Positions 12,776 through 64,000 of a stretch of 64,000 bases of DNA are shown here, piece by piece. Every line of letters starts with the position of its first letter. Position 1 is the stretch's first letter. The position numbers were made by a program, and so were the translations under genes. Source of the stretch: Psammoneis japonica. Its lineage: Eukaryota. The notes under the pieces are model-generated. The model ran no database searches. It saw only the letters and a program-made list of their open reading frames with translations, and had not been told where the DNA came from. Location of the stretch: the NCBI GenBank assembly GCA_008632985.1, contig QPGO01000158.1, forward strand, positions 62,001 to 126,000. The letters are read 5' to 3'.

Positions 12776-12784
12776 ACCTTGGTA

Positions 12785-19500: not shown

Positions 19501-20218
19501 TGGAAATCCAAAAACAAAAATGCCCCCTTGTGAGCTGGCTGGTGGCAGTCCTCTGCTCCTTCTTTGCAAAAATGTTTTTGCGCAGCCCAGCATGGAACTT
19601 GAGCCAAAATGCAAATCTTGCTTGACACATGATTGTGAGGTGTCCATTGGAGATTTTGAAGTTGGGCAACACATTCATGCAGCAGCAGCACTTGCATGAA
19701 GTCAAGCCAAGTTGCTGTGGTTGTGGCGTTCTTGCCCGGGGTGCAAAAAGGTGGTGCCGAGATTTGTGATTTGACCCATGTGTGTGATCTCACACCATCA
19801 GTGGCTTTGATTAATTGGCCCACCAATGTGCTGATTGCAAGTGCCAGATCTGTGTGCCACCCCTGATTGCAGTGCAGCAAGTGTCCTGGCTGTGCTCCGC
19901 CCCAACCAACTGCCCACCACCCACCTCACCATCTTGCAACATCAAGGTGTTGAGAAACTGCAATGATGCTGCAGCTCACAATTGTGAACATGTGTTCACT
20001 TCATTTTGCAATGGCTGCTCCCAAAGCCACATCCTGAGAATCGGTCAGGTTGAGTCGTGCGGAAATGCAAAACACAACTGCTTGATTCTTCAAAAGGATG
20101 GTGTCGCCGTTTGACACGAAAGACACTTTCCACCTAATTGCCAGTACAGCACTTACGAAGGGGGGTTGGCAGCAAAAATTAAATTGAGTCACAGAAGTCT
20201 TCTTCTGATTGCTTCTAC

Positions 20219-29575: not shown

Positions 29576-30899
29576 TTAAGATGTCAAAGCGCACGCACGA
29601 CGCCCAGACGACTAACGTGTGGTCGAATGAATCGGTTCTCCTAGTCCATAATGATGATGTTATCCGACACAAAAAAAAACAACCATGGCGGCAGCAACAG
29701 CCGCTGCTCGATGTTGTTGCAAAACCTTTTCCCACAACAAATATGAATGCATAACATTCTCTATTTTTTTCTCATAAGTGTATCCACTAAAAGAGAGGTA
29801 AGAGAAAATCCAAAAATGGATAAAAACTCCCTTCTGTTGACATTGCTGCTTTTGATGATCCATCTCACAACTTGCGCGTTTCAATTTCTTTTTGTACTGG
29901 ACAGATTGACGAGCACCGAACCTCTTTCTTGGTAAAGAATAATGACTAAAACTCCTTCTGATGTTGCAAAAAAAAAAACTCGCGGGCGCCGTTGTTCCAC
30001 TTTGCCGCCGCTACAACACGCCACACTCCACACTCAGGCTTGTGAAACATTGCATTTTATGTTAAATGTGCAATTCTTTAGAACCATGCAATGCACACAA
30101 AAATGATCTTGTATAAGAAAAATAACTACAAACATTTTCATGGCAATAAAAATGCATGTAAAATGCAGTGCACAAATGTGCATTTCCCAAGTGTGTGTCC
30201 CGCGCTTTGCAATGAGCGGCGAAATGCCACGCACGAAAAGATCTTCTCTTCCACCTCTTCAATGTTCACCTTCATGGTTTGGGGGGTCGGGATCATCACT
30301 GAGTGGCTCACGACCAATGTTCTTCAAAGAATCATCATGCTTGCCGTTGCAATGCAACGATGAGTGAGCTCCGTTTGGATGGGTGGCTCCCCCAATCGCA
30401 TTTGCGGGGCTGGCAACTGCAGCCAAAAATTTTGTGTGGTGATGCATGACAAAGCTCATCTCGCGATCGCTCTTAAGTGCATTTATTGCACATCAACACA
30501 CGTGTTGTTGCCAACAGAAAATGACTGAAAACATTTTTTCAGGACTTAAAATGTGTGTCAAATGCTCACATTTACATTTGCCACGTTGACAAACACAATG
30601 TTTTGCAAGCCTGTCCATGCTGGCATCTGCAAGACCGGCATTGCTTGACGCAGTCGGCGTTTGAAGGCAGTGTGATGGTCAGCGTGGAAGTCTTTGGAGT
30701 GACCTTTCAAGGGTTGATGGTGTTGAGGAGCATGGTGGCGCCGCTGGCGCTGTTGATGCACGATTGGTGATCTGCAAGAGCAGGTGGCACTGTGGCAGCT
30801 GTGCAGTGTGGGAGTCGGCGGCGTTGGAGCAGTTGCTCGTGATTTGTTGCATTGCATTTGCACTTTTGTCCTAGAGAGCTCATCTCTGTGGCATTGTTT

Positions 30900-33800: not shown

Positions 33801-36691
33801 TTGTGACGAGCTGCAGCACTCGTCACGTCTGCCTCGGTTGACAAAACCATTCGGGATTGCTTCCATGGTGCAATGCGATTGCCCCCGACCATGGAATCTC
33901 TGAGTGTTGCAAATGCCTTGTCTGCTTTGTTGTAGAAAGGATGGGGCACTTTCGCGCTCGGATTGACCACAGCCTTGACTGCGACCTTTGTGTCCTCGCA
34001 CGTTCTCAGCTTCCCATCAACAAGCTCCTCGGCTTTCATGTTTACATCTTGCATGTTTCCACATGCAACAATGGTGTTTGACGTGAGAGAAAAGAGACGA
34101 ACAGGAAGTCCAGGTTCCAAGTCGTCTTCACTCGGCTTTCGATGCATGGCTGCGAGCTTTTGCAACTCATGCCAAAGTGCCAGTGACAGCCAAGCATCCA
34201 GTGCGGCATAAATCACTGGCTCGAGACGCAATTGCTGGGTGCTCCATTTTGACCTGGCAAGGCTTTTGTCAACACGACATCCCAAGAATTTTTTGACCAT
34301 TGTTTCCATCTTTCTACGTTCTCCTTGCTGGAACAATCCGTGCCGGTCAGCGACGTCTCGGCAGTCAAAAGTCTTGATCAAGTCAATGCCAAACAGTTGT
34401 TCAGGACAATGACTTCACAGTCTTGTCACATCGCCTTTCACGTTCACGCCAACCAGGTGCACCTTGGAATGTGCAAGAAGTTGACGCAGAATCCCGTGTG
34501 TCTCACACCACCCACTGACGTTCGGAGCACCATGTCGGCCGTCGCTGTTTCTTGTCATGTTTGGAAATGCTGCCCACAATTTGATCACGCCAACTGACCG
34601 AGGGCACGGGTGGTCAGTTGCAATCTGCACCACAATGGGAACTTGGTTTTGCAAGTCATCATTTGTCAAGCTGTCCCACTCCACGTCGAAACCCACGCAC
34701 ACTTTGTCCTCAGCAACTTCGTCGACAGCGGTCAAGATTGGGAGGCAGAAGTCCTTCAGCTCCTTGCACATGTCCATCACCAGTGGATCAACCCCGTCGG
34801 GCAAGGAAGCCAAAGGAACTGTTGCGGCTTGATTTGCGTTGCTTTTGTCCAATCTGCCAAGGGGTGGCATTGCCCTGACAATCATTGGGCACTCATGGCA
34901 GCAATTGTCAGTGTAGAACAATTCAACTTCCTCGCAGGCGTGCACCTTGTGCCGATGTTGGACCACCTTCAAAATGTTTTCAACCTCTTCACAGTCTCCG
35001 CTCCGAACAAAGCGAATGTCCACCACCTGGTTGCATTCATTCATTGCAGTGTAGACAGAATCACATGCTCGCACGCTGCCGCCGGTGGCGCCAGTGACAA
35101 ATGCAAACTCAATGACCTTGCACGACTTGTCACCGAAAAGAACCTTTCCTGACACCATTTCAAGACATCTTTCAAAGTGTGGCAGCTTGGTGATGACACG
35201 ATTCACAAAGACACTTTGCAGATGCTGCCTCGACGGAGGACTGCGCACTCGCACCGTGTCGAATTTTGCAGTCATCGCATTTTCGAACTCGGGCTTCGGC
35301 ACGCTCTGAACAGTGCCTCGCAATTTTGGGTTAAAGTGCACAGCTTGAAACTGCTCCTTCAATTCAAAATGCTTGTTCTTTTGTTTTGCAGCAAGTTCAT
35401 TGTGAATTGCATTGAAGCTTCTTTTCGTCGAGACCGCCTCGACAATGTGGTTTGACAACTGCACTGTCACAGCCCCACGTTTCGTCATTGCTGCATTGAA
35501 AATGCCTCTCACGTTGGTTGTGAGATGAGCTAGCACCTCATCACAATGGCCAGCAAAATGGTGAGGATGGTTTTCAATGTCCCCACAATCTTCATCACCC
35601 ACTCGGAATTCGTCTGGAGCCGCATCTCGCAGTTTCCTAGGTGATTTAATGCTGCAACAGTGTTGACCCAAAAACATGCTTCCGACTGACCCATCTTCAT
35701 CAATGAATGTACGAACGAAGTTGTTGTAAAAAAGATCTCTGCAAGTGCAGGGTTGTTTGGTTTCCGTGTCGCATCGGAAGCCGTGCCATTTGCATGGCAT
35801 CTGACCAGTCGGCAGCAGGTGTGGGGCCGTTCTGTTGGGAGAAAAGAATGTCATTTGACAGAAGCACTTAACCAGCATGTCCACAAATGTTGGGGCTCTC
35901 TGAAGCTTAAAAGGTGCTGTCCATTCACATTCTTCAGATTTCCAAGGGAAATCCTTCGCCCCAGTTGAATGCCGAATGTGTTGATTTGATTGTTTGCATT
36001 TGTTTTTCATGTCCTTTCTCAGCTTGTGCATGACCTCTCCAACAATTTTCCAAAACATGCGTGGCACTTGCTCCATGTTGACACCCGGGAGGGGGTCTTC
36101 ATCAGTTGGCTCTTTTGCAGCCTGTTGCGGTGCGTCTGCAGGTGCATCTGCAGGGACGACCTCAGGGTTGTTGTCGTCACAGTCATTTTCTAGAGGAGCT
36201 CCAGCAGCAGCCCCTTGCACAACAACAGCTAAATTTCCATCGTCTGTCAATGCCTGACGCCTCCGTGGTAAAAAGAAATTTTGTGGGGCCCTTGCTTCCG
36301 CTCGGCTTGCTGCCAGCTGTCTGTTTTGCTTGAGTTCTGCAGCAAGTCGCCGGTCCCGATGCTGCCGCTCTTTTTCCTCTTTTTGCTTGTCCCTTTCAAT
36401 CTGTGCATTCGTCCTCCTGTTGTGTGTGCTTCCTCCAGCACGCCCCCGCCCCTTCTTCTTTTGCAGTTCCGACTCCCGTCTCACACGCGGATTTGCTGCG
36501 TACGGATTTGCCACCGGCGCGTGTTGCGATGCGGGTGCTTGTGTTGTTGTCAGCTGTTGCGCTTGATGCTGTTCTTCCTGACCTGCTCTTCCTTGCTGCT
36601 GCAACAAATCTGATGGCAATGCAGCTTGATCTGTGCCTTGCTGCGCCATTGGAGGCCGTGGCTCAGAAGGATCAGCTGCTTCTTCTGACAT
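30900..36691 (-). pseudogene. Degraded DDE-type transposase with an inserted DEDDy 3'-5' exonuclease domain
   Basis: Consecutive ORFs 34415-36697, 32378-34381, 31790-32368, 31340-31642. Transposase-like motifs LFGDKS, TAMNECNQV, FYTDNCC, GDPFH, RGTSQLEGFH. Exonuclease motifs GFDVEW, GVNVKGD, YAALDA. Confidence 0.75.
33350..33780 (-). repeat. 126-bp (42-aa) acidic coding tandem repeat, about 3.3 units
   Basis: ccaccttcatcttggtc at 33441, 33567 and 33693; unit DEDGTDNxTFDEAGSxPxATADQDEGG..SNAxDIAD. Confidence 0.92.
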
Positions 36692-37328
36692 CGTCAACGC
36701 TGCAAGTCAATGTTGACATTGTTTTTCCTCTCGTTTTGGCGTGTTGATTGAAGTGTGAATGAAACAAAGAGGATTCCCTCTTTCCTGTCGTCACACAATT
36801 TGCACCATGTTGGACCGTTCATTTCTGCTTGTCGTCACAGAAATGGAGTTGTGTCGTCACAGGATTCTGCACAAGTTCCAGTGCATTTCCCACACGATTT
36901 ATGAAGAGCTGCCTGCGCAGCTGGACGATTGCCGAAATTTCGCGCAAAACATGATGTCATGATTCACCCGCCCATGGTTCAGTCTGGACGGTTGAGCCAT
37001 TGACCCACGGCCGCGGCATCCCCAATCACCCACACACCATTTTGCATGATGTTCTCCCACCAGAATCTGCTAAGAAGACTGCTTGGGTGGATTGAGCATG
37101 CTTTGTCGGCCGCCCTTCTTTTGCTCTTCTCACTCTTCTCAATGGCTCAAATGAGAGACAAGGTGGTCAAGAGACACTCTCAAACAGAGTTGCTTTGGCA
37201 GCTTTCCATGCTGACAATCCAGCTGCTGAGCTGATTTGCTCTGAAAATCTGAGGCACTTTCTGAGCTGTGCAGTTGGTTCTTGCACGCTCTCCTCTCTGT
37301 GTGCATGATCCCAAAAAGTGCGCACACA

Positions 37329-37359
37329 AGAGAGAGAGAGAGAGAGAGAGAAGAGAGAG
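37329..37359. repeat. (GA)n microsatellite
   Basis: agagagagagagagagagagagaagagagag. Confidence 0.9.
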
Positions 37360-38572
37360 CTTTGCGAGAAAAGGAAGACAGGCAGGTCAAGCAGCTCATG
37401 CACCCGCAGATGTGAAGGCACTTTTTGAGCCATCCAACAAAAGTTTGTGAAGAAAGCTGGGTCAGACAAAAGGAAAGAAAGAGGGGGATCAACAGTGAGT
37501 GGCCGACATCAATGCAGCCAAGGCTCTGCGATTGAAAAGAAGAAAAGAGTCGTCGATTGACACAACGCTTCAAATGCATGAAGTCATTTGCATGCCCCAT
37601 GCATCTGTCAAAAGTGTGCAAAAAAGCTCAGTGAGAAAAGAAAGGAAAAAAAGTGGCCTTGGCATTTGCAGATGACAGGGCGCTTTTTTTGAGCACTCAA
37701 GCTGGTCTCACTCTCCACCATGCTGAGTGCGCATCTGTCACAAGTGTGTGAAGAAAGCTGGGTGAGCAACAGAAGAGGCAGATCAAGTGGTTTGTGCCAA
37801 GGTGGTTGGGGCTGCAATTGAAAAGAAAAAGAAAAAAAGAGAAAAATGTTGATTTGCTCAAACACGTCACACTCTGAATGCAAACAGTTTTGGTGAATGT
37901 TCTCCCAAGCAAGTGTTTCAAATTCAAGAAACATGGCTTTTCTGGTGATGGTGCTCTGATGTGTGAGGATTGCTGCAACAAAAATGACAGCCTTGAGTGA
38001 GCAGCTTGCCCCAAATGCTGTGCCTCCCTCTGTGAAAATGATTCTCACTGTGCAATCCCAGCCACATGCGCAAAGCCCATGTGAGGGATTCATTGGTCAT
38101 CTTCCTTGTGCCAAAAAAGACAATTGTGGTGGAGAGACATGGGGATGATCCAACTGTGGTGAAGATGATTTCATTGAAGAGCAATGCGCAGCAATTTCTA
38201 AGAATGTGAAGTTGAATGCCAACAGCCACTGTGCAATGAATGTGTCTGTTGTCTTTATCTTCTCCATCGTCTCTATTGCTGGCAACAATTTACGCATGTG
38301 TGGAGGCTGTTAACATGAATGCAAGGATTGGGACACGCATGCTGGCCACTGGTGATTCAGACATCAGTGGTGCGGTGGCTTGCCGTCAAAATGCTCGTGA
38401 TGAAGTTGTGTAATGTGTGTTAATGTATCTTTTTCTAATTTCGATCAACACTGTACTGTTTCACAATCTTCCTCGCACATCATTCCTTCCTTCGCAGGTC
38501 GAAAAACAACCACCGCGAGTAATATATTTATGATATATCGACTGCATTAAAGCATTTGGAGATTCCATACAT

Positions 38573-48855: not shown

Positions 48856-50381
48856 TTTCTTTCTCGTCCTCTCCCAAATAAGTTACGGTCTCACCAGATA
48901 AATCACCTTTGTATTGACTGTCAGACTGATGGAGCATACCTGTATCCAAGCGAGAGCCACGAACATGAAGAACTCAACGATTTTGAGACTTTCCGAAACG
49001 CCGTGGAAAGCTCTGCATCTCTTGCCGAGGAAGTGGGAATTCTCACCTTTATTGGCATGCTGGGAGATAGATCTGAAGAATGCCAGACTTATCCTCTCAT
49101 AGTGTCTTCCTATCACAACACTTTTTTCCATGCCCGGCCTGTTCACGGCTTGCAACCCATCAGTTTACAATGATTCGAGATACTTTGTGAAAGTTCGGTT
49201 CGAGAATGGTTCCTCTGACGGGGAATAATTGCTGTACCGGATCTCTCCGGCTCGAATCAACTCCGGCATTTCAGTTCTACCATTACTGCATGAGCTTAAG
49301 GGTTGAACGTTGCCGATGATGTCGGGCAAACACAGACATCTGAGGGAAACTGCACGGGTCTTGTCATACTTTCAAATCGAGGGCTAAGCCAGCAATCTCA
49401 ATAAGTTTCTAGCACACTAATTTGGGAATAGCACATGTCAAATAATGCCTACAGTATGAGGTGAATACTCTTGTTCTGGTGTAATAAAGATCGCTACTAC
49501 CAATAGACGAGGTCAATCAATCTTCCTCGTCTGATGAGTCGTCGTCCGTCGAGTCATCCGCCTGGATCTCACTATACGAATGAGGCTTGGTCTTCGGCCC
49601 TGCTTGGCGCATGACAAAGTTCTTGCCAATACCTTGCAAATCTCCGTAGTAAGATTGGAATCGGGTCCTTCAACTTGTCACCTACAAACGGAACAGCGAG
49701 AACGACGTGCTTTTCTCTCTTCTCGCTCGGAAGATTAAAACGCATTCGAGTATGCCATCATACACTTTTTACTCCTTCCTTTGATGAACTAGTAGGTAAA
49801 GAAATGGCTTTTGAGACTGGTTGTACGTGGGTTGCCCCCCGTTGGCAGTTGTAAGGTACAACTCACTAAACACGAGATAATAACATGGACACCGTGTTGT
49901 CGATTTGATAGGTCGGGATGCCGGACTATATCGATATACTTTGCAACTTGCTTGGGTGAAGAATGCATCAATCCCATCGATTGTTTGTCCACTTGTTGAT
50001 TAACCGACTGTGCCTTGGCTCTGCTTTTGTGCTTGTTCTTTCGCGGCTCGACACCCACACCACTAACAAGCTCTCGTCGCTTTTCTCATTCTACAAACGC
50101 ACGAATCTCAAATTCAATGTACTTTTCCAAAGCGAGTCTTTTATCGCAGAGTTTATCTCCGAATTTAAAACTTTCTTCACATGTCAGGAAAGTTGTGTCG
50201 CACTGTGCATTCGTTCATCGAGATGTCTGGGAATTGGTACTTGAGAAGAACAACTTTCACGAATACAGAGTGCATCGATCCACAGACTTCTTTGTAGCAA
50301 ATGTCGTCATGAATTGCGAATAGTGCGCTACATCCGTCAACACCAGTCTCCGTCCTTCCATGAGCTCCTTACGCCAAATCA

Positions 50382-50936
50382 CTAGCTAGAGGAGTCCTCT
50401 TCGCCTTTCGAGAACAGCCCATAGAGAACGGAAACAGTGCATGCTGCAATTTCAGCTAGACGGCTCTGTTCATCCACTTGATTATCAAATGCCATCGAAT
50501 CTGCTACCGTTTCCACAAGAGGAAGCAAGACAAGGGTAAATGCAGCAACAATTCCAGGTACAGCGATTCGTTGTCGATTTGCTGGAATTGGAATGTCTTT
50601 TAATTTCCCCAGTCGTGTCCCTAACAGCGCCATGGATGACAACGTTAAAAATGTCCCCGAAAAAATTGGGTCTTTTGCGACGAGAACTCCTGTCAAAAAG
50701 ATGAGTCCAAAACAATCGTCAATGTACTGCGGCTGAATTGCCTCGTCGAGGGGGTCCTTCTTGGAAGCACTCGAAATGCGGCTTTTTTGTTTGTGCCGGA
50801 CGGAAAACGGTGCTACAAGAGGATGATGGTGCCTTGTCAAGAGTTTCTCGCTTCGAGAACATACAAAAGCACCAGTGAAAGTCAATCGCAGAACAAGTAT
50901 GATTGCAACAAAGGTGGGTCCTGCCGCGGCCCTCAT
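50382..50936 (-). CDS. Hypothetical membrane protein, probably plastid-targeted
   Basis: Signal peptide + TGAFVC, several hydrophobic helices, 184 aa. Confidence 0.7.
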   Translation of the reverse strand: MRAAAGPTFVAIILVLRLTFTGAFVCSRSEKLLTRHHHPLVAPFSVRHKQKSRISSASKKDPLDEAIQPQYIDDCFGLIFLTGVLVAKDPIFSGTFLTLSSMALLGTRLGKLKDIPIPANRQRIAVPGIVAAFTLVLLPLVETVADSMAFDNQVDEQSRLAEIAACTVSVLYGLFSKGEEDSSS

Positions 50937-51173
50937 GGCAAATTTTTAGTTTTTTTGTTCAACCTTCAGTAAACCTCCTCTAAAATCGAAGTGGAACGCA
51001 CAATCTTCTGTCGACAACAGCAAGTAGAGGAACGAGAACTTGCGGTTGTGAGCGAGCAGCAGTCTCGAAGTCAAGCGAAGAGGGGAAGCGCCGCCGAGTT
51101 GACCATGGCCGCTGGCTGCTGGCTGCTGGCCGCTGCTCTCACATGCGTGCGGCTGCGCAGCCGGCAGGACATG

Positions 51174-51958
51174 TGAAGAATTTACCATGTGATCTTATCG
51201 GAATTAGTGTTTAGAACTGTATATTTGGCGATTCGGAACGGGAAGACTCCATCCGAGATCTAGTCACAATCTTAGAAATAGTAGCACGATGTTACAACGA
51301 TTTTCTATAACTTTACTCTCTAGCAAGCGACTACAGGGTAATTTATTCACTTTATCAGAGCCATCGCCGTATGTAACGACAGTGGTAATGATTGCTACGC
51401 TTGCGAACGACTCGCAATACGACCATTCGTTCCAACTTGTCAGAGATGACATGAAAACATCGACGAACGTGAGACGACGTTCGTGCTTGACGAGTATGTA
51501 ACTCCCAGGGCTAGTTCGGCCGTAATACTTATGGATAACAAAAGTATCGACTGTCCTGATGTGTCTTATGAGCGTAAATACGCGGACACAGAGCGCAAAA
51601 TTGGATCTGGGACGCCATTTCCATACCGAAGTTATCTCGGAGGCAACCGCGTGGCGATTTGAAATCGCCGAGTGAGCATATATACATATCCAAGTTGAAT
51701 ATGTAGACGCGATATAATTAATAAATTATATATTTAACCTCACTAATTAATAAATTATATATTTAACCTCACTATTGGTCAATGTAAAACAGGGAGCGAG
51801 CACGTCGCCGATGATCGGCACATGCATTATTCGATCACGTAGATTGTAACAGTAGCCGTTATATCTGAATCTCGACACAGATATTAATCCACGTGGATTA
51901 AATATAAACCGCTATCTGTAGACACGTTGATCGTAGTTATAACGATTACTTTTATCCA
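51174..51958 (+). repeat. 5' LTR of the copia element (3' end approximate), TA-rich and unmutated
   Basis: Begins TGAAGAATTT; first 177 bp match 58400-58576; contains a 29-bp AT-rich tandem duplication at 51715-51772. Confidence 0.8.
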
Positions 51959-52063
51959 ACGGTGGAAAAGCGATACGAAGTTCGCGCACCTCACTCACTT
52001 TTCGTGCACAACCACACAAAAGTTTGCGAGACACGTAAAACTCACCGTTTGTAACCATCAACC

Positions 52064-55000
52064 ATGGCAGCAGTCGCAGCAGCGATGCGTGCTGCCTGCG
52101 CCCGACTGGGGTTTACCGCGCAGGCAGCCGCGGCTTTAACCGATGAGCAGGGAATCGACTCAGTCGATGAACTGCGTCATCTCGATGACCACGAGGTCGA
52201 GACCTCACGCAAGGTCATTCGTCGCCCAGGAGGGGCTGCGGCAGGAAATCCGCCGGCAGGTGGGAACGTCCAACCCAACCTGGGGACGTCAGTCCCATTG
52301 CGAGCCGAGACGAACCTCAAGCTCACCGCACACACGGCTCGTCACTGCGAGCGCATGTCGCGGACGTTGCGAGCTGTTGACATCAACCTTGCACGAGTGC
52401 GAGGCTGCCGCCACTTCCGCACTGTGGAGGAGACCTGCAAACCGCCCGAAACGCCACCAACGATCATCGAAAAGGACTGGCCGAAGACGATCGAGTCAAT
52501 TCAGGAGCATCTGCGGGCATGCCGAGGCGAAACGAAGATGCCGCTGTCGCACGTCATCCGTGAGAACCAGGAAGCAACCGCCGAGGCCGACGATCGGCCA
52601 CCAACTACAACGACCCGATCGAGGAGATGATCACGAGGGCTCCCCATCTCACTGCTGGGAACAACCCTCAACCCACCGAGACGTTCACGGCCGACAACAT
52701 CAAAGTGTGGGAGATTGTCGCCGGCATCACTCGGGAACATGCGAGTTGGGCTTATGTCAAGCCAGCCCAGAGGCGCCAGGATGGCAGGACGGCCCACCTG
52801 AACCTCTACAACCATTTCTTGGGCCCCAACAATGTAGACAACATGGCGAACGCTGCTGAAAAGAAGCTCGCCAGTCTGTCCTGCCATGGGGAAAAGCGCA
52901 ACTGGAATTTCGAGCGCTGCGTGCGTGTTCATGTCAAACAACACGCGATTCTGGACGGCTCAAACGAGTGTGGTTACGCCGGGATCGACGCACGATCCAA
53001 GGTCCGCCATCTCCTTGCAAGTGTCAAGGACTCGTCGCTTGACTCAGTCAAGATGCAAATTGTGTCTAGCGCAACGTTGCACAATGACTTTGATGCTTGT
53101 GTTGTCCTGTTCAAGGACTTTATCAAGCAGTCCAAGCCGGACAACGACCGAAACGTCTTCGTGTTGCGGCTCTCAAGGCTGGGAAGCGCAAACGAGAAAC
53201 CGTCATTCATGCCGATGACATGGAGGACAAGTGCCACCCTCCCAAGGAGCACAGCAAGCTTTCTCCTCAGGCCAGGAAGAAGCTCAAGTCGCTGCGCGAC
53301 ACACGTGGTGACACGAAGAGCGGCAAGGCCACGGCGGCCGGCAATGCCAAGCAGATCAGAGCTTTGACCAAGATGGTCGTGGCGATCTCAGCTCAGATGG
53401 ACAATTCATCCGATGAAGGCAGCAGCGAATCTGAGACTGAAGAGCCAATGAAGCCTCCGGCTGCCAAGCAGGAACGGAACCGAAACAACAAGGCGTTGAT
53501 TCGTGAGGCTGCTCGCAAGCATGTCCCCAAGGCTGGATGCTGCAGGAAGTGACAGCCAGTGGTGGCCGTCATGCGGCTCAGTCCGTTGCAGACCTCATGC
53601 CGACCCAGACGAAGGTTAAAGGACCGTCGCGAGAAGAGTCTCGCACGGACATTGACAGTCATGCAGACATGAGCGTGCCAGGCAAGCACGCTTTAATTTT
53701 ACTTGACCATGACAGGCCAGCAGACACAGAAGGGTGCGACCCGACTTTGGGTGCCAGCAAGCGCCTGCGTACAGTCAGTGGAGCTGTCACCTGTGCAGAT
53801 CCTCAGACGGGCCACCCACACGTCTTGGTTGTCCACCAAGCAGTCCACAAACCACACCTTGAGCACAACTTGCTGTGTCCAATGCAGTTGTGGCTGAATG
53901 ACGTGGAACTTTCATTAAAACCGAAGTTTCTGCTGACAAAGCCCAACGACAAGGAACATGCGATTGTCGCCAAGGATGCCACGGCACTTCATTGGCCATG
54001 CCTTTAGACCTGGAGGGAGTCTCGAGCTGCTTCCCCTCCAGTGTCCCGACCTCAGCTCAACATGAGGATGCGGCCCAAGATGGGAGCGTGCATGAACTCA
54101 CGCATGAGTCCCCGGAATGGGATCCCGCCTCCTCCAATTTCCACGCCAGGGAAGATGCCATGACCGATGCTCTTGGCAGAGTGCATGAGACCGGGGACGA
54201 CACGCGTCCTCACGCACACATCATGAGCACAAAGCTCTCACGCACTGCAGCTCAAGAGACCTCAGATGCCCTGGGGAATCAGCCGTTGCATGATGTTTCC
54301 GATGCATGCGATGATCATTTGCTGCTGGCATCCATGAAACTGTCTTCGCTCAAGACAACGAAGCGCGGCTTCAAGGTTGACGCTGAACGTTTGGCCGAGA
54401 ACTGGTCCGTCAGCCTCAAGGATGCTCAGAACACTCTCAAGGTTACGACACAGCGTGGAGCCAGGACAGTTCTGCATCCTGTGCCATCACGACGTTTCCG
54501 CGCCAATGACCGACAACTGCGACACAGGCGCATCTCAAAGGAGATGCACTCCGACACCTTGTTCTCCTCTGTCAAGTCTAGATGAGGGAATTTGTGCGCG
54601 CAAGTGTTCGCAATGTCCAATGGGTGGGCACGCGCTTGTGCAACACACAGCCACTGACAAGAGCCAATGTGTCACGGCGACGTGTTGCAGCCTTTAAATG
54701 TCACAAAGGGCATGACAAAATAACCTTTTGTCTGCATGCATGCTGCATTGTGAATTCACAGCGGAGTGGCACATCGCAACCATTGGGCAGGAGGCCAGGG
54801 GTTCGAAACCCTGAGTGGGAGTTGTCTGCAGCAACGTTGATCACTGTCGAACGCGCAAAACTCTGTGCAGTTCTGCACGTTCCTTCGCACGTACCCACAC
54901 TGTTCCGCCAAAACCGTGCAGTGTCAGTGCACGTTAGTAAAGAGCCGCATGGACGCGTGATGCATGGGGAGGAGTGCAACACACAGCTGCCAATGAGAGC

Positions 55001-58000
55001 CAATGTGTCACGGCGACGTGTTGCAGCCTTTAAATGTCACAAAGGGCGTGACAAAATAACCTTTTGTCTGCATGCATGCTGCACTTGTCCATTGAAGTCA
55101 AAACGTCTGGCGCACGAGGCGTTGTCGTTGCTCTTCACGCAAGAAGGCGTGCCCCATGCTGTGCTGGTAGACGGGGCGAGAGAAGAGACAATGGGGCAGT
55201 TTAGCAAGAAAGCCAGGGAGGCCGATTGCCACATTGGACAAACTGAGCCATGTGCCCCTTGGTCTGACACCGCAGAGGGCGCAATTCGTGAACTCAAAGC
55301 GAGGCGTTGGGCACAAGATGGTTAAGTCACAGGCCCCAAAATGCTTGTGGGATGATTGCCTGGAACTGGAAGGCCTTGTTGGGTCTAACACGCTCGAAGC
55401 ATCTGTGAGCTTGACGGTGAAGTCCTGGAAACTGCAGTGTCTGGTCAGACGGCTGACATCTCGCACATGTGTGAACTCGGCTGGTGCAACTGGATCATGT
55501 TTCGAGACACGGCAGTCTCATTTCCCGAGGACAAGGAAGTCCTGGGACGATGTCCAGGCCCGAGCAGGGATGCAGGCCCTGCTGTGACGGTCAAGACACT
55601 CAAGGAGAACGGACAGGTCGTCCATCGCTCATCTCATGGGGCACTGACGCCCGAGGAACAGGAGCACAAGACGCACCTTGCATTGCGTGAGAAGTTCGAC
55701 AGGTCAGTGGAGGTCAAGCCAGGCCCGGGTGTGACCGTCGGGGACTTTGATGACCCTGACGCAATTGCTCCCACCTTCGAACCGTGCGAGGATGACGAGG
55801 AACAGGATGTTCCGGCCAGTGCCTCCGATGAGGATGACACCCCAGACGAAGCCTACGATCAACATGTCAACGCAGAAGCACTGCCACCTCACGGGGACAT
55901 GGAGCAGACTGGGACAGTGAAGCGACGCAAGCTCAATCCGGACGGCACACCTGCCGGACGGGCTGGCCCAAACCCGACACTTGACACTCGTGTGCATGAG
56001 GTCGAGTTTCCTGATGGATAGGAAGCGGAATTCGCGGCGAATGTCATCGCTGAGAATGTGTTCGCACAGTGCGACAATGAAGGCAACCAGCACTTGTTGC
56101 CAGATGCAATCATTGATCACAAGACTGACGGGCATGCAGTCAAGAAGGAGGATGCCTTCATCCAAGACAGTGGAGGACGTCGATCCATGCGCAAGACTGC
56201 CAAAGGCTGGCATCTTTGTGTGCAATGGAAAGACGGATCCACATCTTGGGAACGACCATCCGACTTGAAGGAATCCAACCCAGCAGAGACAGCAGAGCAT
56301 GCTGGGGCTAGATCCACAGAGGACGAACCAGCCTTTGCCTGGTGGGCCCCCTTTACCTTCAAGAAACATCAGCAGATTATGGCCGCTGTGAACAAGCAAC
56401 ATCACAAGTGCACTCACAAGTGCGGGGTGCGCATTCCCAAGACCCATGAAGAGGCAGTCGAGATCGACAAGGCTGACGGCAACCGCTTGTGGCAGGACGC
56501 CACAGACAAGGAGATCGATGTCGTTTCGAAGGCCTTTGAGATTATCGACGACGACGAGGAACTCGTGGGTTGCCAGCATGTTCGCTGCCACTTGGTCTTC
56601 GATGTCAAACTACAAGACTTCAAGCGGAAGGCTCGTTGTGTTGCAGGGGGGCATGCCACTGAACCTCCAGCGACTCTGACGTGTGCAAGCATCATCTCCC
56701 ATGAAAGTGCAAGGATTGCCTTCGCTCTAGCGGCTCTAAATGACTCAGAGGTTAAGGCTGCGGACATTGAGAATGCCTGCATCACCGCACCTGACAGCGA
56801 GAAGATCACTGCAACTCCAGGACCTGAGTTTGGACCCAATGCTGGGAAGCGTGCCACAGTTGAGCGTGCATTGCATGGATTGAAGAGTGCAGGTGCATCC
56901 TTCAGGAACCACTTGGCATCTTGCATGCGCCATCTTGGATGGGAACCATGCCTGGCTGATCCGGATGTGTGTGTGAAGGCACAGGTCCGACCGGATGATG
57001 GGTTCCGTCACTGTGCCCATGCACTGTTGCATGTAGACGACGTGCTTGTGGCACACCACGACGCTACGTTGGCACTCAAGGAATTGGACCGGCACTTCAA
57101 GATGAAACCCGGATCCATCGGTGACCCTGAGATGCGCCTCGGGGCGAAAATCCGTGAAGTGCAAATGCCGAATGGTGTCTGCGCATGGAGCATGAGCTCT
57201 AGCAAGTGCATCCAACAGGCCATTGAGAATGTTGAGGGGCATCTAGATGAGACTGCTCCCGGATGGATGTTGCCACGCAAGGCAACTTCTCCGTTTCTGT
57301 GCAACTGTCGACCGGAACTCGACATCACGCCAAAGCTTGATGCAGAGTGGGCCCGATTTACCAGTTGCAGGTGGGATCCTGCGCTGGATGGTGGAACTCG
57401 GACGAGTCGACCTCACAGTGGAGGTGTCCGAGCTCGCCTCATTCCTCGCCATGCCTGGAGAAGGTCATCTCGACGCAGTCCTGCATGTGTGTGGACACCT
57501 CAAGAATGGACATGATGCCACGCCAGCGTTTGATCCGACGTGCCCGGATGTTGACATGTCTGACTTTAAGGAATGTGATTGGCAGGCATTTACAGGGACA
57601 TTGAGGAGGCAATTCCGCCAAATGCACCAGAAGCTCTGGGCAAGGACATTGATCTACACCCATTTGTGGAATCAGATCATGCGAATGACAAAGTGACGAG
57701 ACGCTCTCGCACTGGTTGTTTTGTCCATTGAATGTGGCACCAGTCACCTGGTTCTCCAAGCGCCAGAGTGCCATCGAGACTTCAGTCTTTGGTGCTGAGT
57801 TTGTGGCTGTGAAGCAGGGCATGGAAGCTTTGCGAGGCCTGAGGTGTAAACTCAGGATGATGGGAGTCCCGCTCAGCGGACCATCACACATTTGTGGGGA
57901 CAACATGTCAGTTGTCCACAACACCCAAAGCCCAGAGTCGACTTTGAAGAAGAAGTCTAACTCTGTGTGCCACCATGCCGTGGGGAGTCGGTGGCTGTGG

Positions 58001-58135
58001 GTGAGTCCCTTGCAGGACACATTAGATCGGAATGCAATCCGGCTGATCTTGCAACCAAGATCATGCACGGTGGTGTCAAACAAGATGGCCTCGTTGGCAT
58101 GATGCTACACGACACATTTGATGACAAAGGATGAA
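52064..58135 (+). pseudogene. copia gag-pol pseudogene
   Basis: ORFs 52064-52630, 52627-53367, 53537-54007, 53992-54585, 55437-56021, 56058-57515, 57716-58102; frameshifts and systematic Tyr->Cys/His. Confidence 0.93.
54639..55083 (+). mobile_element. TRIM (445 bp) nested in the copia integrase
   Basis: 109-bp TG..CA LTRs at 54639-54747 and 54975-55083, PPT ggggaggag, 4-bp TSD CTTG; removing it restores GWARACPLKSK. Confidence 0.92.
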
Positions 58136-58399
58136 AGAAGAATGAACAGTCGCTTCTTCGACTGTTTCTTTTTCTGTTTCTCCTTGCATCTGCGAGCATG
58201 GGAGCTCACACCAGCGGGCATGTTGGCTCGCATTCCTTCCATGCGCCTCTTGGAAGGGCACAGTTGGACCGGCACCCTTTCCCAATTCGGGTTTCAGCAG
58301 GTTGCTGGGGTTTCCTTGTCACTTGGTTGTGGCTAAATGCTGTCGGAGTGTAAATTGGATCAATCCGATTCAGTGTCTGCTTCAACGACTTGAGGGGAC

Positions 58400-58576
58400 T
58401 GAAGAATTTGCCATGTGATCTTATCAGAATTAGTGTTTGGAACTGCACATTTGGCGATTCGGAACGGGAAGACTCCATCCGAGATCTAGTCACAATCTTA
58501 GAAATGGCAGCACGATGTTGCAACGATTTTCTGTGACTTTGCTCTCTGGCAAGCGACTGCAGGGTAATTTGTTCAC
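58400..58576 (+). repeat. Truncated, hypermutated 3' LTR
   Basis: Ungapped 177-bp match to 51174-51350 with 14 substitutions. Confidence 0.95.
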
Positions 58577-59714
58577 ATGCCGGTAGGGCAACATGTCAGC
58601 AGCGCAGAGTGAGCTCACAAGAACATGGCTGTGATGCCTCACTGACAAACCAAGAAGGTTGCTTTGGAGGGAACATGTTGCTCAAAATGGAAATCTGACC
58701 AACCGTGATTTGGTCTCACAACAAAATGTGGCAGTCTTCTCAAACTCCAAAAGCCCGGCTGTGCAGGGACTCTTGTGTTCTTCCTCCTCCTTCAGCTCCC
58801 AGAGAACGAGCCCCTTCTCTCAAGTGTGTGCAACTGGGACCAGCTTGTCAGCCACACCAGTGGTGGCAGGTTTGACAAGCTTCTTGGTGGCCAAGCTTTG
58901 CTGTCATCTAACAGAAATTTCCTCCTCTTTCCTTTGCTCTCTGGTGGCAACGGACACAGCCCACTGGCCGCTTGAGGCACACAATTTGCAAATGTGGAAA
59001 GAATCTGCCTCAATGAGGGAACAGGCATTTTTGCACCAGTCACAGCTGGTGCTTCTATTTCCTTGATTTCTGTGGCTGGGGGGGGATGACCCCTGCATGG
59101 CTGCAGGTGAGCCTGTCCCAACAATGCCTTTGTCCCAACAAAGCCTGGGCATCTGCAAGAAGACTGGAGTGTGATGACAATGATGACAGTGGCTGTCCTT
59201 GCTGCCCTTTTTAGGACAAGAAAGAGGAGCACTGCCACCAAGTGCAACAACATGAGGACTTTGGTTGTCTGACCACTTGTGGCTGCAGCAGAGTTTTGTC
59301 CTTGCATCCATGGCAAGAGCCAACAGCGCCTTTTCAGATCCTCAGCTGATGGGACACCCAGCAGGACAAATTTTAGAAAATGGCAGCAGCTTCAACACCA
59401 CAGCCAGCAATGATGGTGCATCAAGGTTCCTGTGTGTGTGATTTGAGCACATTTTTCTTTTCAAAACACAGGCTTGTCTCAAGATGGAAAAATTGAGCTG
59501 CCCCAGCACCAACAAAACAAAAAGGTGTTTTTTCTGGGACACGTGTGAAGCTCAGATGTGCAAAGAGAGTCCTTTGTCAAGCTGGACAGGACTCAAAACA
59601 AAAAAATCTCATTTTGTTTGATTTGAACATTTGGAAAAGTTTGGCAGAAATTTGAACTTGAGCAAACAAAGCTGAGATGTTTTGCACAGTGTTGACACAC
59701 TGTGACGTGCTGCT

Positions 59715-60360
59715 TGGGATGTGAAGTGCATGTTCAAAAGCTGAAGCTGCAAACCATTTTGCAAAAGAGACTTTTCTGTTGGCTCACACTTTGCCACCAG
59801 GTCTCTCTGTTGGCTGCCCTGACTTTGCTTGCCATCACAAGAGCTGCAGCCAAACAAACCACACAAACTGTGCTCCACCCTTTGAGACTGTTCCTTGGGA
59901 CATGGAAAGTGAGCTCAGAAGCTGAGAGTGCAAACACTTTGGCAGAAGTGACTTTTTCTGCTGGCTCACACTTTGCCACCAGGTTTCTCTGTTGGCTGCC
60001 CTGATTTTGCTCTCCTGCCACAACTGCAGTCAAACAAACCACCCAAACTGTGCTCAACCTTTTGGGGCTGTTTTCTAAGACATGGACAGTGAGCTCAGAA
60101 GCTGAGAGTGCAAACACTTTGGCAGAAGTGACTTTTTCTGCTGGCTCACGCTTTGCTGCCACCAGGTTTCTGTGCACACCCAGAGGCTGCTCTGCTGCCA
60201 AAACTGCAGCCAAGAAACACACCCAAACTGCAATCAAGCCTTTGAGGCTGCTCCTTGGGATGTGAAGTGTGTGCTCAGAAGCTGAAGCTGCAAGCCATTT
60301 TGCAGAAGAGACTTTTTCTGTTGGCTCACACTTTGCCACCAGGTCTCTCTGTTGGCTGCT
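59715..60360. repeat. 180-bp tandem repeat, about 3.5 units
   Basis: gctga(ag/ga).tgcaa at 59740, 59921, 60101 and 60281. Confidence 0.9.
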
Positions 60361-61699
60361 GCCGCTTCATGGGCAAGTCCCAGAAAATTGGTCATTGACA
60401 CAATGCAGCTCTTTTGTCCATCACCCTTTGTGCCAAGTGGAAGCACACCCGGTGCAGAAAGCTGGAGCTGATGCACTCAAATGACAAATGCAAAAGCATG
60501 AAACAAAAAGAGTGCCAACACACCACAGGGAAGTTTTGGTGCTTGCTGACAAACAAGGGCAAAAGGCAAAACACAAAACTGGCTGTCATGGAGGTCCTGC
60601 CATTGTTGTCAGCATGAGTGCAGCACCACTTTACATGCACAAGATGGTTTGCGGACACAGACATGTACAATCTGTGGCAGATTGTGCACTGCCATGCCAC
60701 ATCACATTTTTCTTGATGCAACAGTTCAGATGAGCTCTGCCGCTGGTTGATGCACTGGAATGGCCCAATTTGCTTGAACTGCAAAAGTCATTGGCTGCCC
60801 CAAAATTTGCATGAGAGGCCAATGGACAAACACAATGATGTTGTTGTGGCAGCGGCATTGTCAGCACTTTTCCACTGCCATGCAACAGCACAATGTTGTT
60901 TTTGATGGAACAACACAGATGAGCACCAATGGCTGGTGCATCAGAATGGCCCATTTTGCTCAAACTGCAGGAGCTTGCTGTTTTGTTCAAACTTGTGTGA
61001 GACCAATGCACCATCACAAGCACTTTGCTGCAGCCTTGTTGCAGTGTGCTTTTCTTTACAACACAGATGAGTGCCAGTGGCTGGCACAAGAGAGCAACCA
61101 AATTTGTTCAAACCAGGAGTCACCAGCTTGTCCAAATTTGAAGGAGAGGCCAGTGGTGCCAACACAATGACAACATGGTGGTGGCATGTCAGCACTTTCC
61201 TGCAGCTGCACAACAGCATGTCTTTCATGATGTGTCAAGAGGGCAGACAAGCATTGATGGCTGATGTGAAGGAACAGTCTGTTTTGCTCAAACTGCAGGA
61301 GTTCATCACATTCTTGTTCAAGCTTGCATGAGGCAGCCATCAGCATGTTTTTATGATGATGTGGCTGAGTTGTCAGCACTTTCTTGCAGCCTTGCAAAAG
61401 TGTGTTTTGACAGCATAAATGAGTGCAGGTGAATCTGTCATGTTCTGGCACAAACAGAAATTTGGGGATGCACTGGGCATGACAATGTTGCTGTCATTGG
61501 CAGACTGCCAAGGTGCACTTGAAATGTTGGTTGGTGAGCGCGAGTTTGGCTGTTGCACCACCCCCACATGAGTGCTTCAGAACTGCCATGAGTTGATCTT
61601 CAGATGGTCCTGATGCATGATTTGGTCATTTTGGAAGACTGGTGGAGACTGTGCTTTGAATCCATGGGGCACCCTGCCTGGACAACAAGCAACTTCCAT

Positions 61700-62735
61700 G
61701 TTGGCAATTTTTGCTTTTTAAGTTGCCACAAAAGAAGTCTCAGCATGCAGCCCAAACACTCTGATGGCACATGCACACTTGTGGGACATTGTCACTTGCA
61801 GAGACAATGCTGCAGTGATCATGAAATGGCGGGAACTTCAAATGAAGGCCTCTGCTGTTGTGCCACAGTGGAGTGCAGCATCTTCACTCCTTGTGTCTCT
61901 TTGTGATGTCTGCGTGGTGCCACACAGAATTGTGCATGGTGCATGCATGCATGGAGCCCCTCACATTGGGTTGCACTTGCACACCAAAAATGAGCTCTCC
62001 AAGCTGTCCATGGCTGTGACATTGTTTCCTGGAAAAGGTCAGGTGAGTCATTGTTGCATGAGTCCATTGGCAGGACCAACATCTTGCATGTTCCTCATGG
62101 GCAGACAAGCATGCACAGCGTTTGGCTGCTGCTGTCTGCAAGTCAAATGTGGCAGCACCCTCTGGCATTGAGGAGATCTGATGATGACACCCACCACACA
62201 AAGCTTTCAAGCTCATGCAGCATGTCTGGACATGAGGAATTGGGTGGGGCAATCTTTTGTCCCCATTGTTGAGCTCACGGAAATTGCCAACAAACCATGC
62301 CACAAAATCTTGCTTTGGCAAGGAAAATGATGGAGCTGCGCACTGCAGACACAGTTGGTTGTGTGCTCAGCAATGCCAACTTCATGAATGTGCTCCACTT
62401 TCTTTCTCAGCATTGCTTCACATCCCCTTGGGGCTTTGCAAAGATGTCTGCAACATGGCACAGCATGATCCTCTTTGAGCTTGGTGTGCTGACAGGAACC
62501 CCCTTTCCACTCGCCTGACATGCCATCAAGCAAGGACTCACACTTGCTCAACAAACTGAGCAGCTTCATGTTCTGGTCACTGCCAAGACCTGTTGCTCCC
62601 TGCATTGTGTCCTCAAGGCATGCTGGCACATGCTCAGCATCTGAGATCTTCACAATTCTCAGTTCTGTTGCTTTCTGAAAACAGTGCCTCTGGATCTTGA
62701 AAACAAATGAAGGTTTCTGCAGTGGCTTCTGCACA
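61700..62735 (-). pseudogene. Ty3/gypsy reverse transcriptase remnant
   Basis: LLSKCESLLDGMSGEWKG, KLKEDHAVPC, PKQD..FVGNFRELN..KRLPHPIP, LPMDSCNNDSPDLFQE resemble gypsy LLxKYxxLFDGTLG, DFRELN, PYPIP, LPMG..SPDxFQ. Confidence 0.75.
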
Positions 62736-64000
62736 CTTCAATGGCATCTTGTCATTGACCTTTGGCCACTCCAGCATGTCTCATCCAACAACCATGTGTC
62801 AGGTTTGCATGATGATCAACTGTGTGTGTGGTTGACTTTGCGCACAAGCTCTGCTGTTGCAGACAACTCTGGCAACTGAAATTGGTGATGCAAGCACTGT
62901 GTGCCATCTTGAAGCTGCCTGCCAATGTGGTTTTGGCTGTTGTGTGGCTCAAAAGCCATTTGCTTGCAGCACTTGGCATCTGGCAGCACATGCTCCTGAT
63001 GCTGCCATCTGGCACTGCTTCAATCATTTCAGGCTTGCCTTCACCATGCTTGGCATCCATGGCTGCAAACAACATTGCTGCCAGTCAAATGTCTGTGCTT
63101 GACATGTGTGCAGGGTTGGCCTGTGCAACATGAGTGTGATGGCACAACAAGTGATGCACTGAACCTGTCTGACTTGCACTGGCCTGCTTGTTCTCAGGTG
63201 CTGTTGTCCTCCAAATCCTTGTTGGAGTCACCCAGGGAGAGGGCACAAAAGTAATTTGGCTCCTCTTTGCAAGCCTTGCACACCACCCTGCAGTTCTCAA
63301 GCACATCTTCAACTCTTGCCTTGGCAGGAGCTTTGTCAAGCTCCTCATGAGTGGTGTGCAGTTTCTGTGTGGCTGGTTTCTGATTGCTGTTCATGTGGGA
63401 CATCTTGAGACATTCCACCCCATGCCTCAAAATGAGATGTTCTTCCACATTGTGCACCTGGCACTGTCACCACCATGCAACACTCAGCATTTGATGCCTT
63501 TCTCTCCTGACTGGCGACCCCAGCACTTTTGAGGAATGTCCATTCTTCCATGGCCCTGGTGCTTCATGGGGACATTGTGGCACGACCTTCCTGCTTGCCT
63601 TTGGCAGAAACAAATTTTGCAATGGCATGAGTCCACGGGTCAAAATCCTGTGAGATTGTCTGCCTTTGCCATGTGTTTGGAGCGCTTCATTCAAATGAGT
63701 CAACCAACTCATCTTCTGGCAATGATGCAGGTGCAAAACCATTTTCAATCACAGACAGAAACAGCAAGATGTGGCCATTCAGCTCACTGACCTTTGTGGC
63801 ACAGAGTCACCTGTCTTCACACCATTTGGCTTGAGTGCAAAACATCACAGAGACAACATGCTTTTGCAGCAGCACTGCCTTGTGCAGGAAGATGCTTTCA
63901 GTCACCTTTGAGATGCACACCTTGAACAAAACCACATTGGCCCCCCCCTGATGCCCCTTTGACACACCATCATCAAATGCAGCAAAGACACTGCCTTGTT

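Follow-up and report, generated by a model that had tools for sequence, protein, structure and literature searches.

TpA-depleted, sharply bounded domains in a 64-kb stretch of diatom DNA and the case for hypermutation of transposons in place

Genes and depleted domains in the window

The stretch of DNA considered here, 64,000 nucleotides of contig QPGO01000158.1 in the Psammoneis japonica assembly GCA_008632985.1 (positions 62,001 to 126,000; hereafter the window, in whose own numbering all coordinates are given), holds a copia retrotransposon together with five stretches (D1-D5; Table 1) from which the dinucleotide TA has been nearly erased in favour of TG and CA. By domain counts, their TpA observed/expected ratio (o/e) is 0.03-0.18 as opposed to 0.55-0.58 in genic DNA, where three control stretches with a total of 32.6 kb also keep CG at an o/e of 0.95-1.04, and all 45 TA-free runs of at least 200 bp that the window contains fall within D1-D5. 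Ordinary eukaryotic genes are present as well and specify an ABC1 kinase, a V-ATPase c subunit, a PhoD-like phosphatase, proteins with leucine-rich (LRR) or tetratricopeptide (TPR) repeats, VASt proteins and a prenyltransferase; the last has its closest database matches, at no more than 61% identity, in diatoms (Asterionellopsis, Epithemia, Amphora) and marine sequences. No tRNA genes were found in the 64 kb. From its gene content we read the window as nuclear DNA of a diatom for which the protein collection contains no closely related species.

Among the ten strand-symmetrised dinucleotides, decreases in the domains are restricted to TA and CG and the sole increase is that of CA/TG, besides slight shifts in AT (o/e down from 0.96 to 0.79) and GC (up from 1.05 to 1.30), which we attribute to ATA/TAT and GTA/TAC being the preferred targets of the process described below. 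TpC is unaffected, with GA/TC at o/e 1.14, 1.09 and 0.89 and no increase in CC/GG. These counts bear out the initial annotation of this DNA in its claims that the copia interior and the region at 31-37 kb lack TA while keeping many CG (TA/CG o/e 0.18/0.79 in D4 and 0.09/0.68 in D3) and that the blocks at 12.8-20.1 and 58.6-64 kb lack both (TA 0.04, CG 0.09-0.14, TG/CA 1.65-1.97). The resulting strata are nested: three domains have lost TA only, two (D1, D5) have lost both and none has lost CG only.

The domains measure 1-8 kb, D5 continuing past the end of the window, and their contents include RVT_2 and a multi-copy family. With transition-tolerant scoring, D1-D5 show no mutual similarity beyond that of shuffled controls, so their shared composition is imposed by the host rather than inherited from one family. 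Domain edges are sharp and those of TA loss do not coincide with element ends. CpG loss begins exactly at the end of the copia element (58576/7), which fits a younger element lying beside an older block, and D1, on its right side, comes within 85 bp of the stop codon that ends the intact PhoD-like gene.

Across the 31.5 kb of TA-depleted DNA that were scanned there are 111 open reading frames (ORFs) of at least 100 aa. Conversion of TA to TG or CA never makes a new in-frame stop codon (TAA can only become TGA or CAA), and long spurious ORFs in all frames are the consequence.

Table 1. Positions of the depleted domains, the parts of the copia element and other features of the window (LTR, long terminal repeat; TRF, Tandem Repeats Finder)
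Feature	Position	Strand	Remarks
D1	12791-20134	none	TA 17 (o/e 0.04), CG 60 (0.14), TG o/e 1.97, CA 1.65
D2	27663-28620	none	small; TA 2 (o/e 0.03), CG 43 (0.73); TpA-free, CpG retained
D3	30160-38198	minus	TA 43 (o/e 0.09), CG 349 (0.68)
D4, copia interior and 3' LTR	52064-58576	plus	TA 57 (o/e 0.18), CG 393 (0.79)
D5	58577-64000	none	TA 13 (o/e 0.04), CG 29 (0.09), TG 675 (1.96), CA 630 (1.89)
Copia 5' LTR	51174-51350	plus	unmutated; 18 TA, 8 CG; CATG just before, at 51170-51173
Copia leader	51351-52063	plus	TA- and CG-rich, untouched by either process
Copia gag-pol interior	52064-58399	plus	TpA-depleted, CpG mostly kept; missense changes ruin coding capacity
Insertion in copia	54637-55088	plus	452 bp; repeat of very high copy number (336-bp unit), about 1.3 units
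Copia 3' LTR	58400-58576	plus	hypermutated; CATG at 58576-58579
D3 ORF	32381-36706	minus	1442 aa, one in-frame stop, 3'-5' exonuclease domain PF01612
D1 direct repeats	12779-13762 / 18095-19102		about 1 kb; D1 is a composite old block
PhoD-like pseudogene, C-terminal fragment outside D1	12477-12775	minus	aa 500-597, tblastn E=4e-29
PhoD-like pseudogene, fragment inside D1	13744-13959	minus	aa 84-156, tblastn E=1e-21
Intact PhoD-like phosphatase gene	20219-22021	minus	600 aa, PF09423 E=6e-13; normal TA and CG; reference
Prenyltransferase gene	22331-23434		closest database matches diatom
D2 direct repeat	27761-27960 / 28100-28306		339-bp spacing, 73% identity
D5 tandem array	59734-60359	none	180-bp unit, 3.5 units, TRF score 735, 80% matches

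The copia element and the direction of change

We assign the element at 51174-58576 to the Ty1/copia LTR retrotransposons, as indicated by its 177-bp direct LTRs (92% identity) and an RVT_2 domain (E=2e-10); its homologs at E=3e-176 are RVT_2 polyproteins of 1300-1400 aa, some of them from Fragilaria, and full-length homologs align along 53600-58128 (tblastn). The two LTRs of one element are identical at integration. Here, 14 of their 177 columns differ, all 14 by transitions (13 of them A:T>G:C) and all through changes in the 3' LTR, in which 13 of 18 TA (10 to TG, 3 to CA) and one of 8 CG (to CA) have been converted. None of the 18 TA has been converted in the 5' LTR (p=7e-6), and columns outside shared pyrimidine-purine (YR) dinucleotides are unchanged throughout (0/93; YR vs non-YR p=2e-11). 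The changes were made after insertion and copy by copy. By these counts, which reproduce those of the initial annotation, about 70% of the TA were converted before any ordinary substitution, and TpA conversion has outpaced CpG decay in this copy (13/18 vs 1/8, Fisher p=0.009), as had been proposed.

At the other end of the element, the 5' LTR and leader together (51174-52063, 890 bp) hold 81 TA (o/e 1.06) and 64 CG (o/e 1.69), both the maxima of the window, and resemble a promoter island that has remained unmethylated and been spared by both processes. An AT-rich 32-mer is tandemly repeated within this stretch, near 51715-51778. The count of TA per 100 bp, 9-18 up to this point, falls to 0-2 at about 52000-52140, next to the long ORF's first ATG (52064), and from about 52064-52140 it stays low through the 3' LTR into D5, with no gradient of surviving TA along D4.

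This pair of LTRs bears on a scenario in which retroelement RNA is edited (ADAR-like), or its cDNA deaminated, before integration, such that copies arrive already mutated. ADAR-type enzymes favour a 5' U, a point made in the Discussion of a preprint on Bigelowiella (Mettrop et al., bioRxiv 10.64898/2026.01.13.699255) to which we return below, and in D1 most conversion came before a 1-kb repeat was duplicated, so mutated sequence can indeed be copied. Both LTRs share a template, however, yet all 14 differences sit in one of them; the leader, although part of the RNA, is untouched; editing of one strand predicts TG only or CA only, whereas the two are found in equal numbers and interspersed; and the signature is also carried by a host pseudogene fragment and by D3, which has no reverse transcriptase (RT). 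ADAR (A-to-I in RNA) and APOBEC (C-to-U in single-stranded DNA) are comparable in that they are deaminases which hypermutate mobile elements (retroelements of animals) with a nearest-neighbour preference (5' U for ADAR), but they act on RNA or pre-integration cDNA, on one strand, and would leave identical LTRs, in contrast to the window, where both strands, discordant LTRs and DNA other than retroelements are involved. Since discordant LTRs, an unedited leader and the equality of TG and CA are a pattern that RNA or cDNA editing cannot give, we rejected editing of this type and regard it as very unlikely to lie behind the domains.

Outgroups polarise the changes. The RT ORF of the copia element (56022-57512, 497 aa) contains no Tyr, as compared to an average of 4.4% in 50 homologs (P ~2e-10); of 13 columns that are Tyr in at least 80% of these homologs, 6 read His, 5 Cys, 1 Arg and 1 Thr in the window. 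Each of the codons at these 11 His and Cys is CAT, CAC, TGT or TGC, one transition away from TAY, and the catalytic YVDD has become HVDD. Conserved Arg columns have changed to His (3), Gln (2) and Cys (1), six replacements that mark CpG decay. When the D3 ORF is aligned with its homolog P0242, 21 Tyr now read Cys (8), His (7), Tyr (2), Phe (2), Thr (1) and Val (1). Together with the LTR pair, these outgroup proteins fix the direction and uphold the earlier view that TA and CG were lost through transitions converging on TG/CA.

Related copia loci of other organisms, taken from metagenomes as the best 80 of 318 matches and biased to intact copies by the ranking and by one search pattern that contained Tyr, have a TA o/e of 0.38-0.90, with a median of 0.67, and stay at or above 0.25 in every 1-kb window. 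Low TA is thus derived and not a property of the family; GC content is 55% in the window copy vs 38-55% in the 80 loci. On these comparisons, we take the TA-poor state to be derived and damaging, neither a family trait nor an adaptation. An origin in intrinsic composition or selection, be it UpA avoidance in transcripts or TA-poor donor DNA, is to our minds close to impossible: TA is scarce in the coding DNA of this genome to begin with (o/e 0.55-0.58), as such a view would have it, but replacement of catalytic and conserved Tyr (YVDD to HVDD), the higher TA of the relatives, the sharing of this state by five unrelated sequences (including non-coding ones) and the difference between two LTRs all speak against it.

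Strands, flanking bases and reads

The two products are near equal in number, with TG/CA counts of 807/841 in D1, 577/611 in D4 and 675/630 in D5, and no runs of TG or CA were found of the kind that processive, strand-coordinated clusters would leave (lag-1 concordance 0.48-0.52, z from -1.7 to +0.6). The process is symmetric with respect to the strands.

It is also selective for flanking bases. Among the 132 TA that survive in the five domains, the base preceding the T (both strands counted) is A in 7% as compared to 29% in controls and T in 43% as compared to 22% (p=3e-19). ATAT is absent among the survivors (0/132 vs 111/1323 in controls), TTAA reaches 3.9 times its control share and ATAC falls to 0.05 times. 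Relative to controls, survival in D3 and D4 is 0.02-0.06 for ATA, 0.12-0.18 for GTA, 0.17-0.33 for CTA and 0.21-0.43 for TTA, and D1 and D5 give the identical order whether host or family serves as the control. A preference for a purine at -2 and one for a pyrimidine at +1 are indistinguishable here, TA being palindromic and the numbers of product trinucleotides, LTR hits (13) and Tyr codons being small.

For a check on reads we used Logan contigs from a public DNA run, the one DNA run found to contain the stretch and possibly the assembly's own source; no RNA run was listed as containing it, and runs X2 and X3 contained next to none of the sampled words of the window. In the one run, the depleted block 58605-59793 is reproduced with 6 other letters in 1191 and at a depth of 61.5, and the unique flank 50001-51234 has a depth of 62.3. 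This equality argues against a misread base, which on both strands of a palindromic site would give a mixture of TG and CA, broken k-mer contigs and halved depth. An artefact of sequencing or assembly, in which heterochromatic TpA and CpG carry a modified base that is systematically misread while the real DNA retains TA and CG, is therefore highly improbable, as a 1191-bp contig spans the depleted block at full depth with one fixed outcome per site. In its favour, sharp edges would also fit a domain of modification, and the sole run has no recorded library type and may be the data from which the assembly was made.

The same contigs show that the copia family is multi-copy (summed depth 400-870 vs 62 for unique DNA) and that its other copies differ from the one in the window at 351 places by transition and at 77 by transversion. 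Twelve of 40 listed differences make up six adjacent CA<>TG doubles, the outcome expected where one ancestral TA (or CG) was resolved independently in each copy.

The insertion within the copia element belongs to a satellite-like or miniature element that is very abundant in this genome, with a summed word depth of 82,429 vs 62 in unique DNA. Polyprotein alignments do not cover it and two contigs skip 54634-55084. Between the arms of this repeat, 7 of 7 differences are transitions (three CA/TG doubles, one CA/CG) and none of 44 other columns has changed. At 54928/9, one of the six CA<>TG doubles splits the repeat, which occurs at more than 1000 times unique depth, into about equal shares of TG and CA, each at roughly half its depth.

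Proposed mechanism, old blocks and known systems

We consider it probable that silenced, transposon-filled domains of this diatom have been mutated in place by a fast TpA>TpG/CpA process together with a slow decay of CpG. In the fast process, the A of 5'-TA would be hit by an A:T>G:C transition, with the strand decided separately for every site and with an efficiency in the order ATA/TAT > GTA/TAC > CTA/TAG > TTA/TAA, and 80-95% of TA would be gone before other sites change. Every Tyr codon would be destroyed in this way (Tyr to His or Cys), and an element would be killed without new stop codons. The slow process would be the ordinary CpG>TpG/CpA decay of methylated CG and would complete the loss in old blocks, which, as both processes end at TG/CA, become saturated with these dinucleotides. 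As proposed for Bigelowiella, the chemistry is most likely enzymatic, with a deaminase that intrinsically requires a 5' T converting adenine in DNA to hypoxanthine, and we infer that CpG loss is due to 5-methylcytosine (5mC); a candidate deaminase gene was not found in the 64-kb window. Since one of two identical LTRs was mutated and the other spared, and since saturation extends to a diverged block present in a single copy, it seems to be position, probably in the form of chromatin state, and not homology that directs the targeting.

Can the same in-place, domain-limited process be explained by thymine rather than adenine chemistry? An enzymatic TET/JBP-type mark on the T of TpA in silenced transposable elements (TEs), similar to 5-hydroxymethyluracil (5hmU), may be envisaged, which through mispairing or faulty repair results in T>C, and since TA is palindromic, A>G and T>C are inseparable from sequence. 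We know of no 5hmU in diatoms, and 5hmU:A pairs are weakly mutagenic. TpC is unaffected in the window, CC/GG is not raised and none of the 93 non-YR columns of the LTRs has changed. What makes the idea attractive is that dinoflagellates, which like diatoms belong to the stramenopile-alveolate-rhizarian (SAR) lineage, are described as having 5hmU made by TET/JBP homologs, enriched on TEs, silencing them and replacing T preferentially in TA and TC (PMC11572971). That mark is epigenetic and not reported as a mutational footprint, and its additional preference for TC differs from the window. We therefore favour deamination of adenine and consider a thymine-based route unlikely.

D1 and D5 differ from the other domains in how far they have drifted. 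Outside YR sites, their internal repeats diverge by 12.5% (D1 pair) to 25% (D5 tandem units), as opposed to 0 of 137 columns in copia, and we take both blocks to be older than the other domains. None of the 25 ORFs of at least 100 aa in D1 has a Pfam match, none of the 18 lying wholly inside D5 is above the Pfam cut-off (one has a sub-threshold match to DUF6273), and neither block gives a tblastn match to three copia polyproteins or P0242. A pseudogene that straddles the left edge of D1 allows host sequence to be compared across that edge, with the intact PhoD-like gene as reference. At the 8 TA of the paralog, the fragment inside D1 has TG (4), CA (1), TA (1) and AA (2), and at its 16 CG, TG (4), CA (3), CG (4) and others (5). 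The fragment outside has TA (3), CA (2), AA (3) and TT (2) at 10 reference TA and is not depleted (9 TA in 12501-12750). This contrast agrees with the edge but, the numbers being small, is suggestive only.

As an aside on this locus, the broken paralog lies 7.7 kb from the intact gene and has had its middle (aa 157-499) replaced by one copy of a 1-kb repeat, of which a further copy lies at 18095-19102. A reading of the pseudogene centre as hypermutated PhoD sequence was dropped: 12790-13750 aligned to 20530-21560 scores 85 vs at most 72 in shuffles and 52 for the reverse complement, which we treated as no homology.

Could the two ratios serve to date TE copies, as the initial annotation had proposed? 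Its idea that a fast TpA decay and a slow CpG decay run like clocks on all copies since insertion is in keeping with the nested strata (three domains with TA-only loss, two with both, none with CG only), with the LTR pair (TA 13/18 vs CG 1/8) and with blocks that have lost both dinucleotides being those of highest non-YR divergence (12.5-25% vs 0/137) and no recognisable coding capacity. The order of events that it implies, TpA first and CpG later, holds as well, given that the older blocks D1 and D5 are the ones to have lost both. As a clock, however, it fails on LTRs of the same age (0/18 vs 13/18) and on the untouched 890-bp 5' end: discordant LTRs and a TA o/e of 1.06 vs 0.18 within one element mean that TA loss depends on position in a bounded domain and not on age alone. 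The process in Bigelowiella, too, is active in just 11 of 15 lines as the preprint describes it. Moreover, the initial annotation had named as telling against its clock that CpG loss with intact TpA be as common as the reverse, and across organisms, CpG but not TpA has been lost in 5 of the 80 related copia loci (CG o/e <0.4 with TA o/e 0.38-0.87) and the reverse occurs in none, the two ratios being uncorrelated (rho -0.01). A clock common to all copies thus seems improbable, and we keep to mutation in place within domains.

Two of these metagenome loci, L002 and L015, stand apart with a CpG o/e of 0.01 and 0.02, TA at 0.47 and 0.38 and TG+CA at 1.5-1.6. Theirs is a near-total erasure of CpG without one of TpA, stronger than usual methylation decay.

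Several observations weigh against in-place mutation of bounded domains as we propose it. The evidence comes from five domains in one 64-kb window, and the signature was seen in none of the 80 related copia loci, a sample that favours intact copies. The D1 repeat pair has TG in both copies at 89 sites, CA in both at 102 and CA against TG at 10; agreement at 191 sites and disagreement at 10 indicate that most conversion predates the duplication and that mutated sequence was copied. The difference between PhoD-like fragments inside and outside D1 (5/8 vs 2/10 TA converted) is non-significant by our estimate (Fisher). As for the copia element, a mutated and an unmutated copy could have recombined to form it: its flanks differ, normal DNA on the left and an old block on the right; a 4-bp CATG is found on both sides and a 5-bp duplication is absent, and such a 4-bp match is weak evidence for a single insertion. 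The edge of TA loss near 52064, at the start of an ORF, is not predicted by a model of pure chromatin spreading. Finally, our read check, made on one run that is perhaps the assembly's source, does not amount to independent replication.

The closest parallel is found in the chlorarachniophyte Bigelowiella natans. Two viral regions integrated in its genome acquired 231 mutations in mutation-accumulation lines, and 230 of these were A>G or T>C changes, every one at a TpA; the rate was ~6e-7 per site per generation (~1000 times background), and the process was switched on in just 11 of 15 lines; an ADAT2-like DNA adenine deaminase was proposed, not shown (Mettrop et al., bioRxiv 10.64898/2026.01.13.699255). 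The preprint describes several features that the window shares: nearly all changes are A>G or T>C, they convert TpA only, to TpG or CpA, they lie in regions of foreign DNA, and activity is not uniform. The footprint reported for that genome, 1-kb clusters depleted of TpA, enriched for CpA and TpG and enriched for RT and DDE domains, also resembles the window, and three features at the sequence level, namely transition-only changes, TpA to TpG/CpA conversion and bounded TpA-depleted domains, are found in both. The two cases differ in the host, a rhizarian there and a stramenopile here, in the targets, giant-virus and virophage insertions vs an LTR retrotransposon, an exonuclease-bearing element, a high-copy repeat and old blocks, and in the depth of depletion, near saturation in the window (o/e 0.04-0.18) vs 0.45 for the nucleocytoplasmic large DNA virus (NCLDV) region of Bigelowiella. 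The window adds a hierarchy of flanking bases, a symmetry of the strands free of clustering, a domain edge that falls within an element and, superimposed, a CpG stratum. The words trinucleotide, CpG, diatom and stramenopile are absent from the text of the preprint, whose tables S2-S12 may hold data on flanking bases. We found no literature report of TpA hypermutation in diatoms or other stramenopiles, and the window appears to be the first diatom case we could find of this recently described kind.

Repeat-induced point mutation (RIP) of ascomycete fungi is alike in being a context-specific hypermutation by transitions that happens in place, inactivates transposons and leaves a dinucleotide signature. 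We rejected it as an explanation on account of its opposite direction, as polarised by outgroups, and because one member of a repeat pair is affected here: RIP converts CpA to TpA, gains TpA and lowers GC, whereas in the window TpA is destroyed and the GC of copia raised to 55%, and RIP mutates both repeat copies by homology, whereas here the LTRs differ (0/18 vs 13/18) and a diverged single-copy block is saturated. Deamination of 5mC at CpG in methylated transposons, known from vertebrates and plants, matches the second and slower stratum in its CG>TG/CA changes, its excess of TG/CA and its replacement of Arg by His, Gln or Cys. It covers the CpG half of the signature only, and the CpG o/e of 0.09-0.14 in the window is below the mammalian figure of roughly 0.2. 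That TEs of diatoms carry CG methylation, as the initial annotation took to be established, is indeed published, in a paper describing them as its main targets and DNMT5 as the enzyme (PMC9998398).

Taken further, we put forward tentatively, as a possibility rather than an expectation, that diatoms and perhaps SAR at large have an adenine-directed counterpart of RIP. In such a system, the A of 5'-TA would be deaminated on both strands of double-stranded DNA, with R-T-A/T-A-Y preferred, in silenced domains with base-pair-sharp edges, so that new transposons lose their Tyr codons before ordinary mutation sets in, and CpG decay would form a separate, slower layer. If real, this would be a second, phylogenetically distant genome defence that mutates adenines rather than cytosines, and a preprint observation from a single species would become a candidate for a widespread mechanism in marine algae. 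The window also offers several handles that the Bigelowiella report lacks: any candidate enzyme has to match the observed preference for flanking bases; the strands are hit symmetrically and without processivity; the sharp boundary inside one element can be set against chromatin maps; and, at the protein level, Tyr-free ORFs rich in His and Cys are a marker to screen for in any genome. A natural DNA adenine deaminase would also interest base-editing research. In practical terms, such blocks defeat homology-based TE annotation (0 of 43 ORFs recognisable in D1 and D5 combined), bias GC and dinucleotide statistics, make dating by LTR divergence wrong unless TA and CG sites are masked and, through their long spurious ORFs, will lead gene finders to overcall.

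The ORF in D3 deserves separate mention. The initial annotation took 31-37 kb for a transposase, a label we cannot maintain: the 1442-aa ORF has an exonuclease domain and no recognisable transposase domain. A DNA transposon was considered and rejected, PF01612 being all that was found and terminal inverted repeats not convincing. The exonuclease domain is split across the in-frame stop, and 126-bp tandem repeats at 33368-33817 code for an acidic repeat. A search of 5.8 billion proteins returned P0242 (47% identity) as the single homolog, no relatives were found among viral contigs, and an atlas lead points to eukaryotic proteins of 1300-1700 aa that combine DUF6729 with an exonuclease. The ORF may encode an undescribed mobile-element protein.

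Outside the domains, a tandem duplication in genic DNA (1908-2241 / 2450-2781, 88% identity) has kept TA in both copies at 14 sites and changed it at one, and its copies differ at 8 of 23 CG, which indicates that ordinary CpG hypermutability operates outside the domains too.

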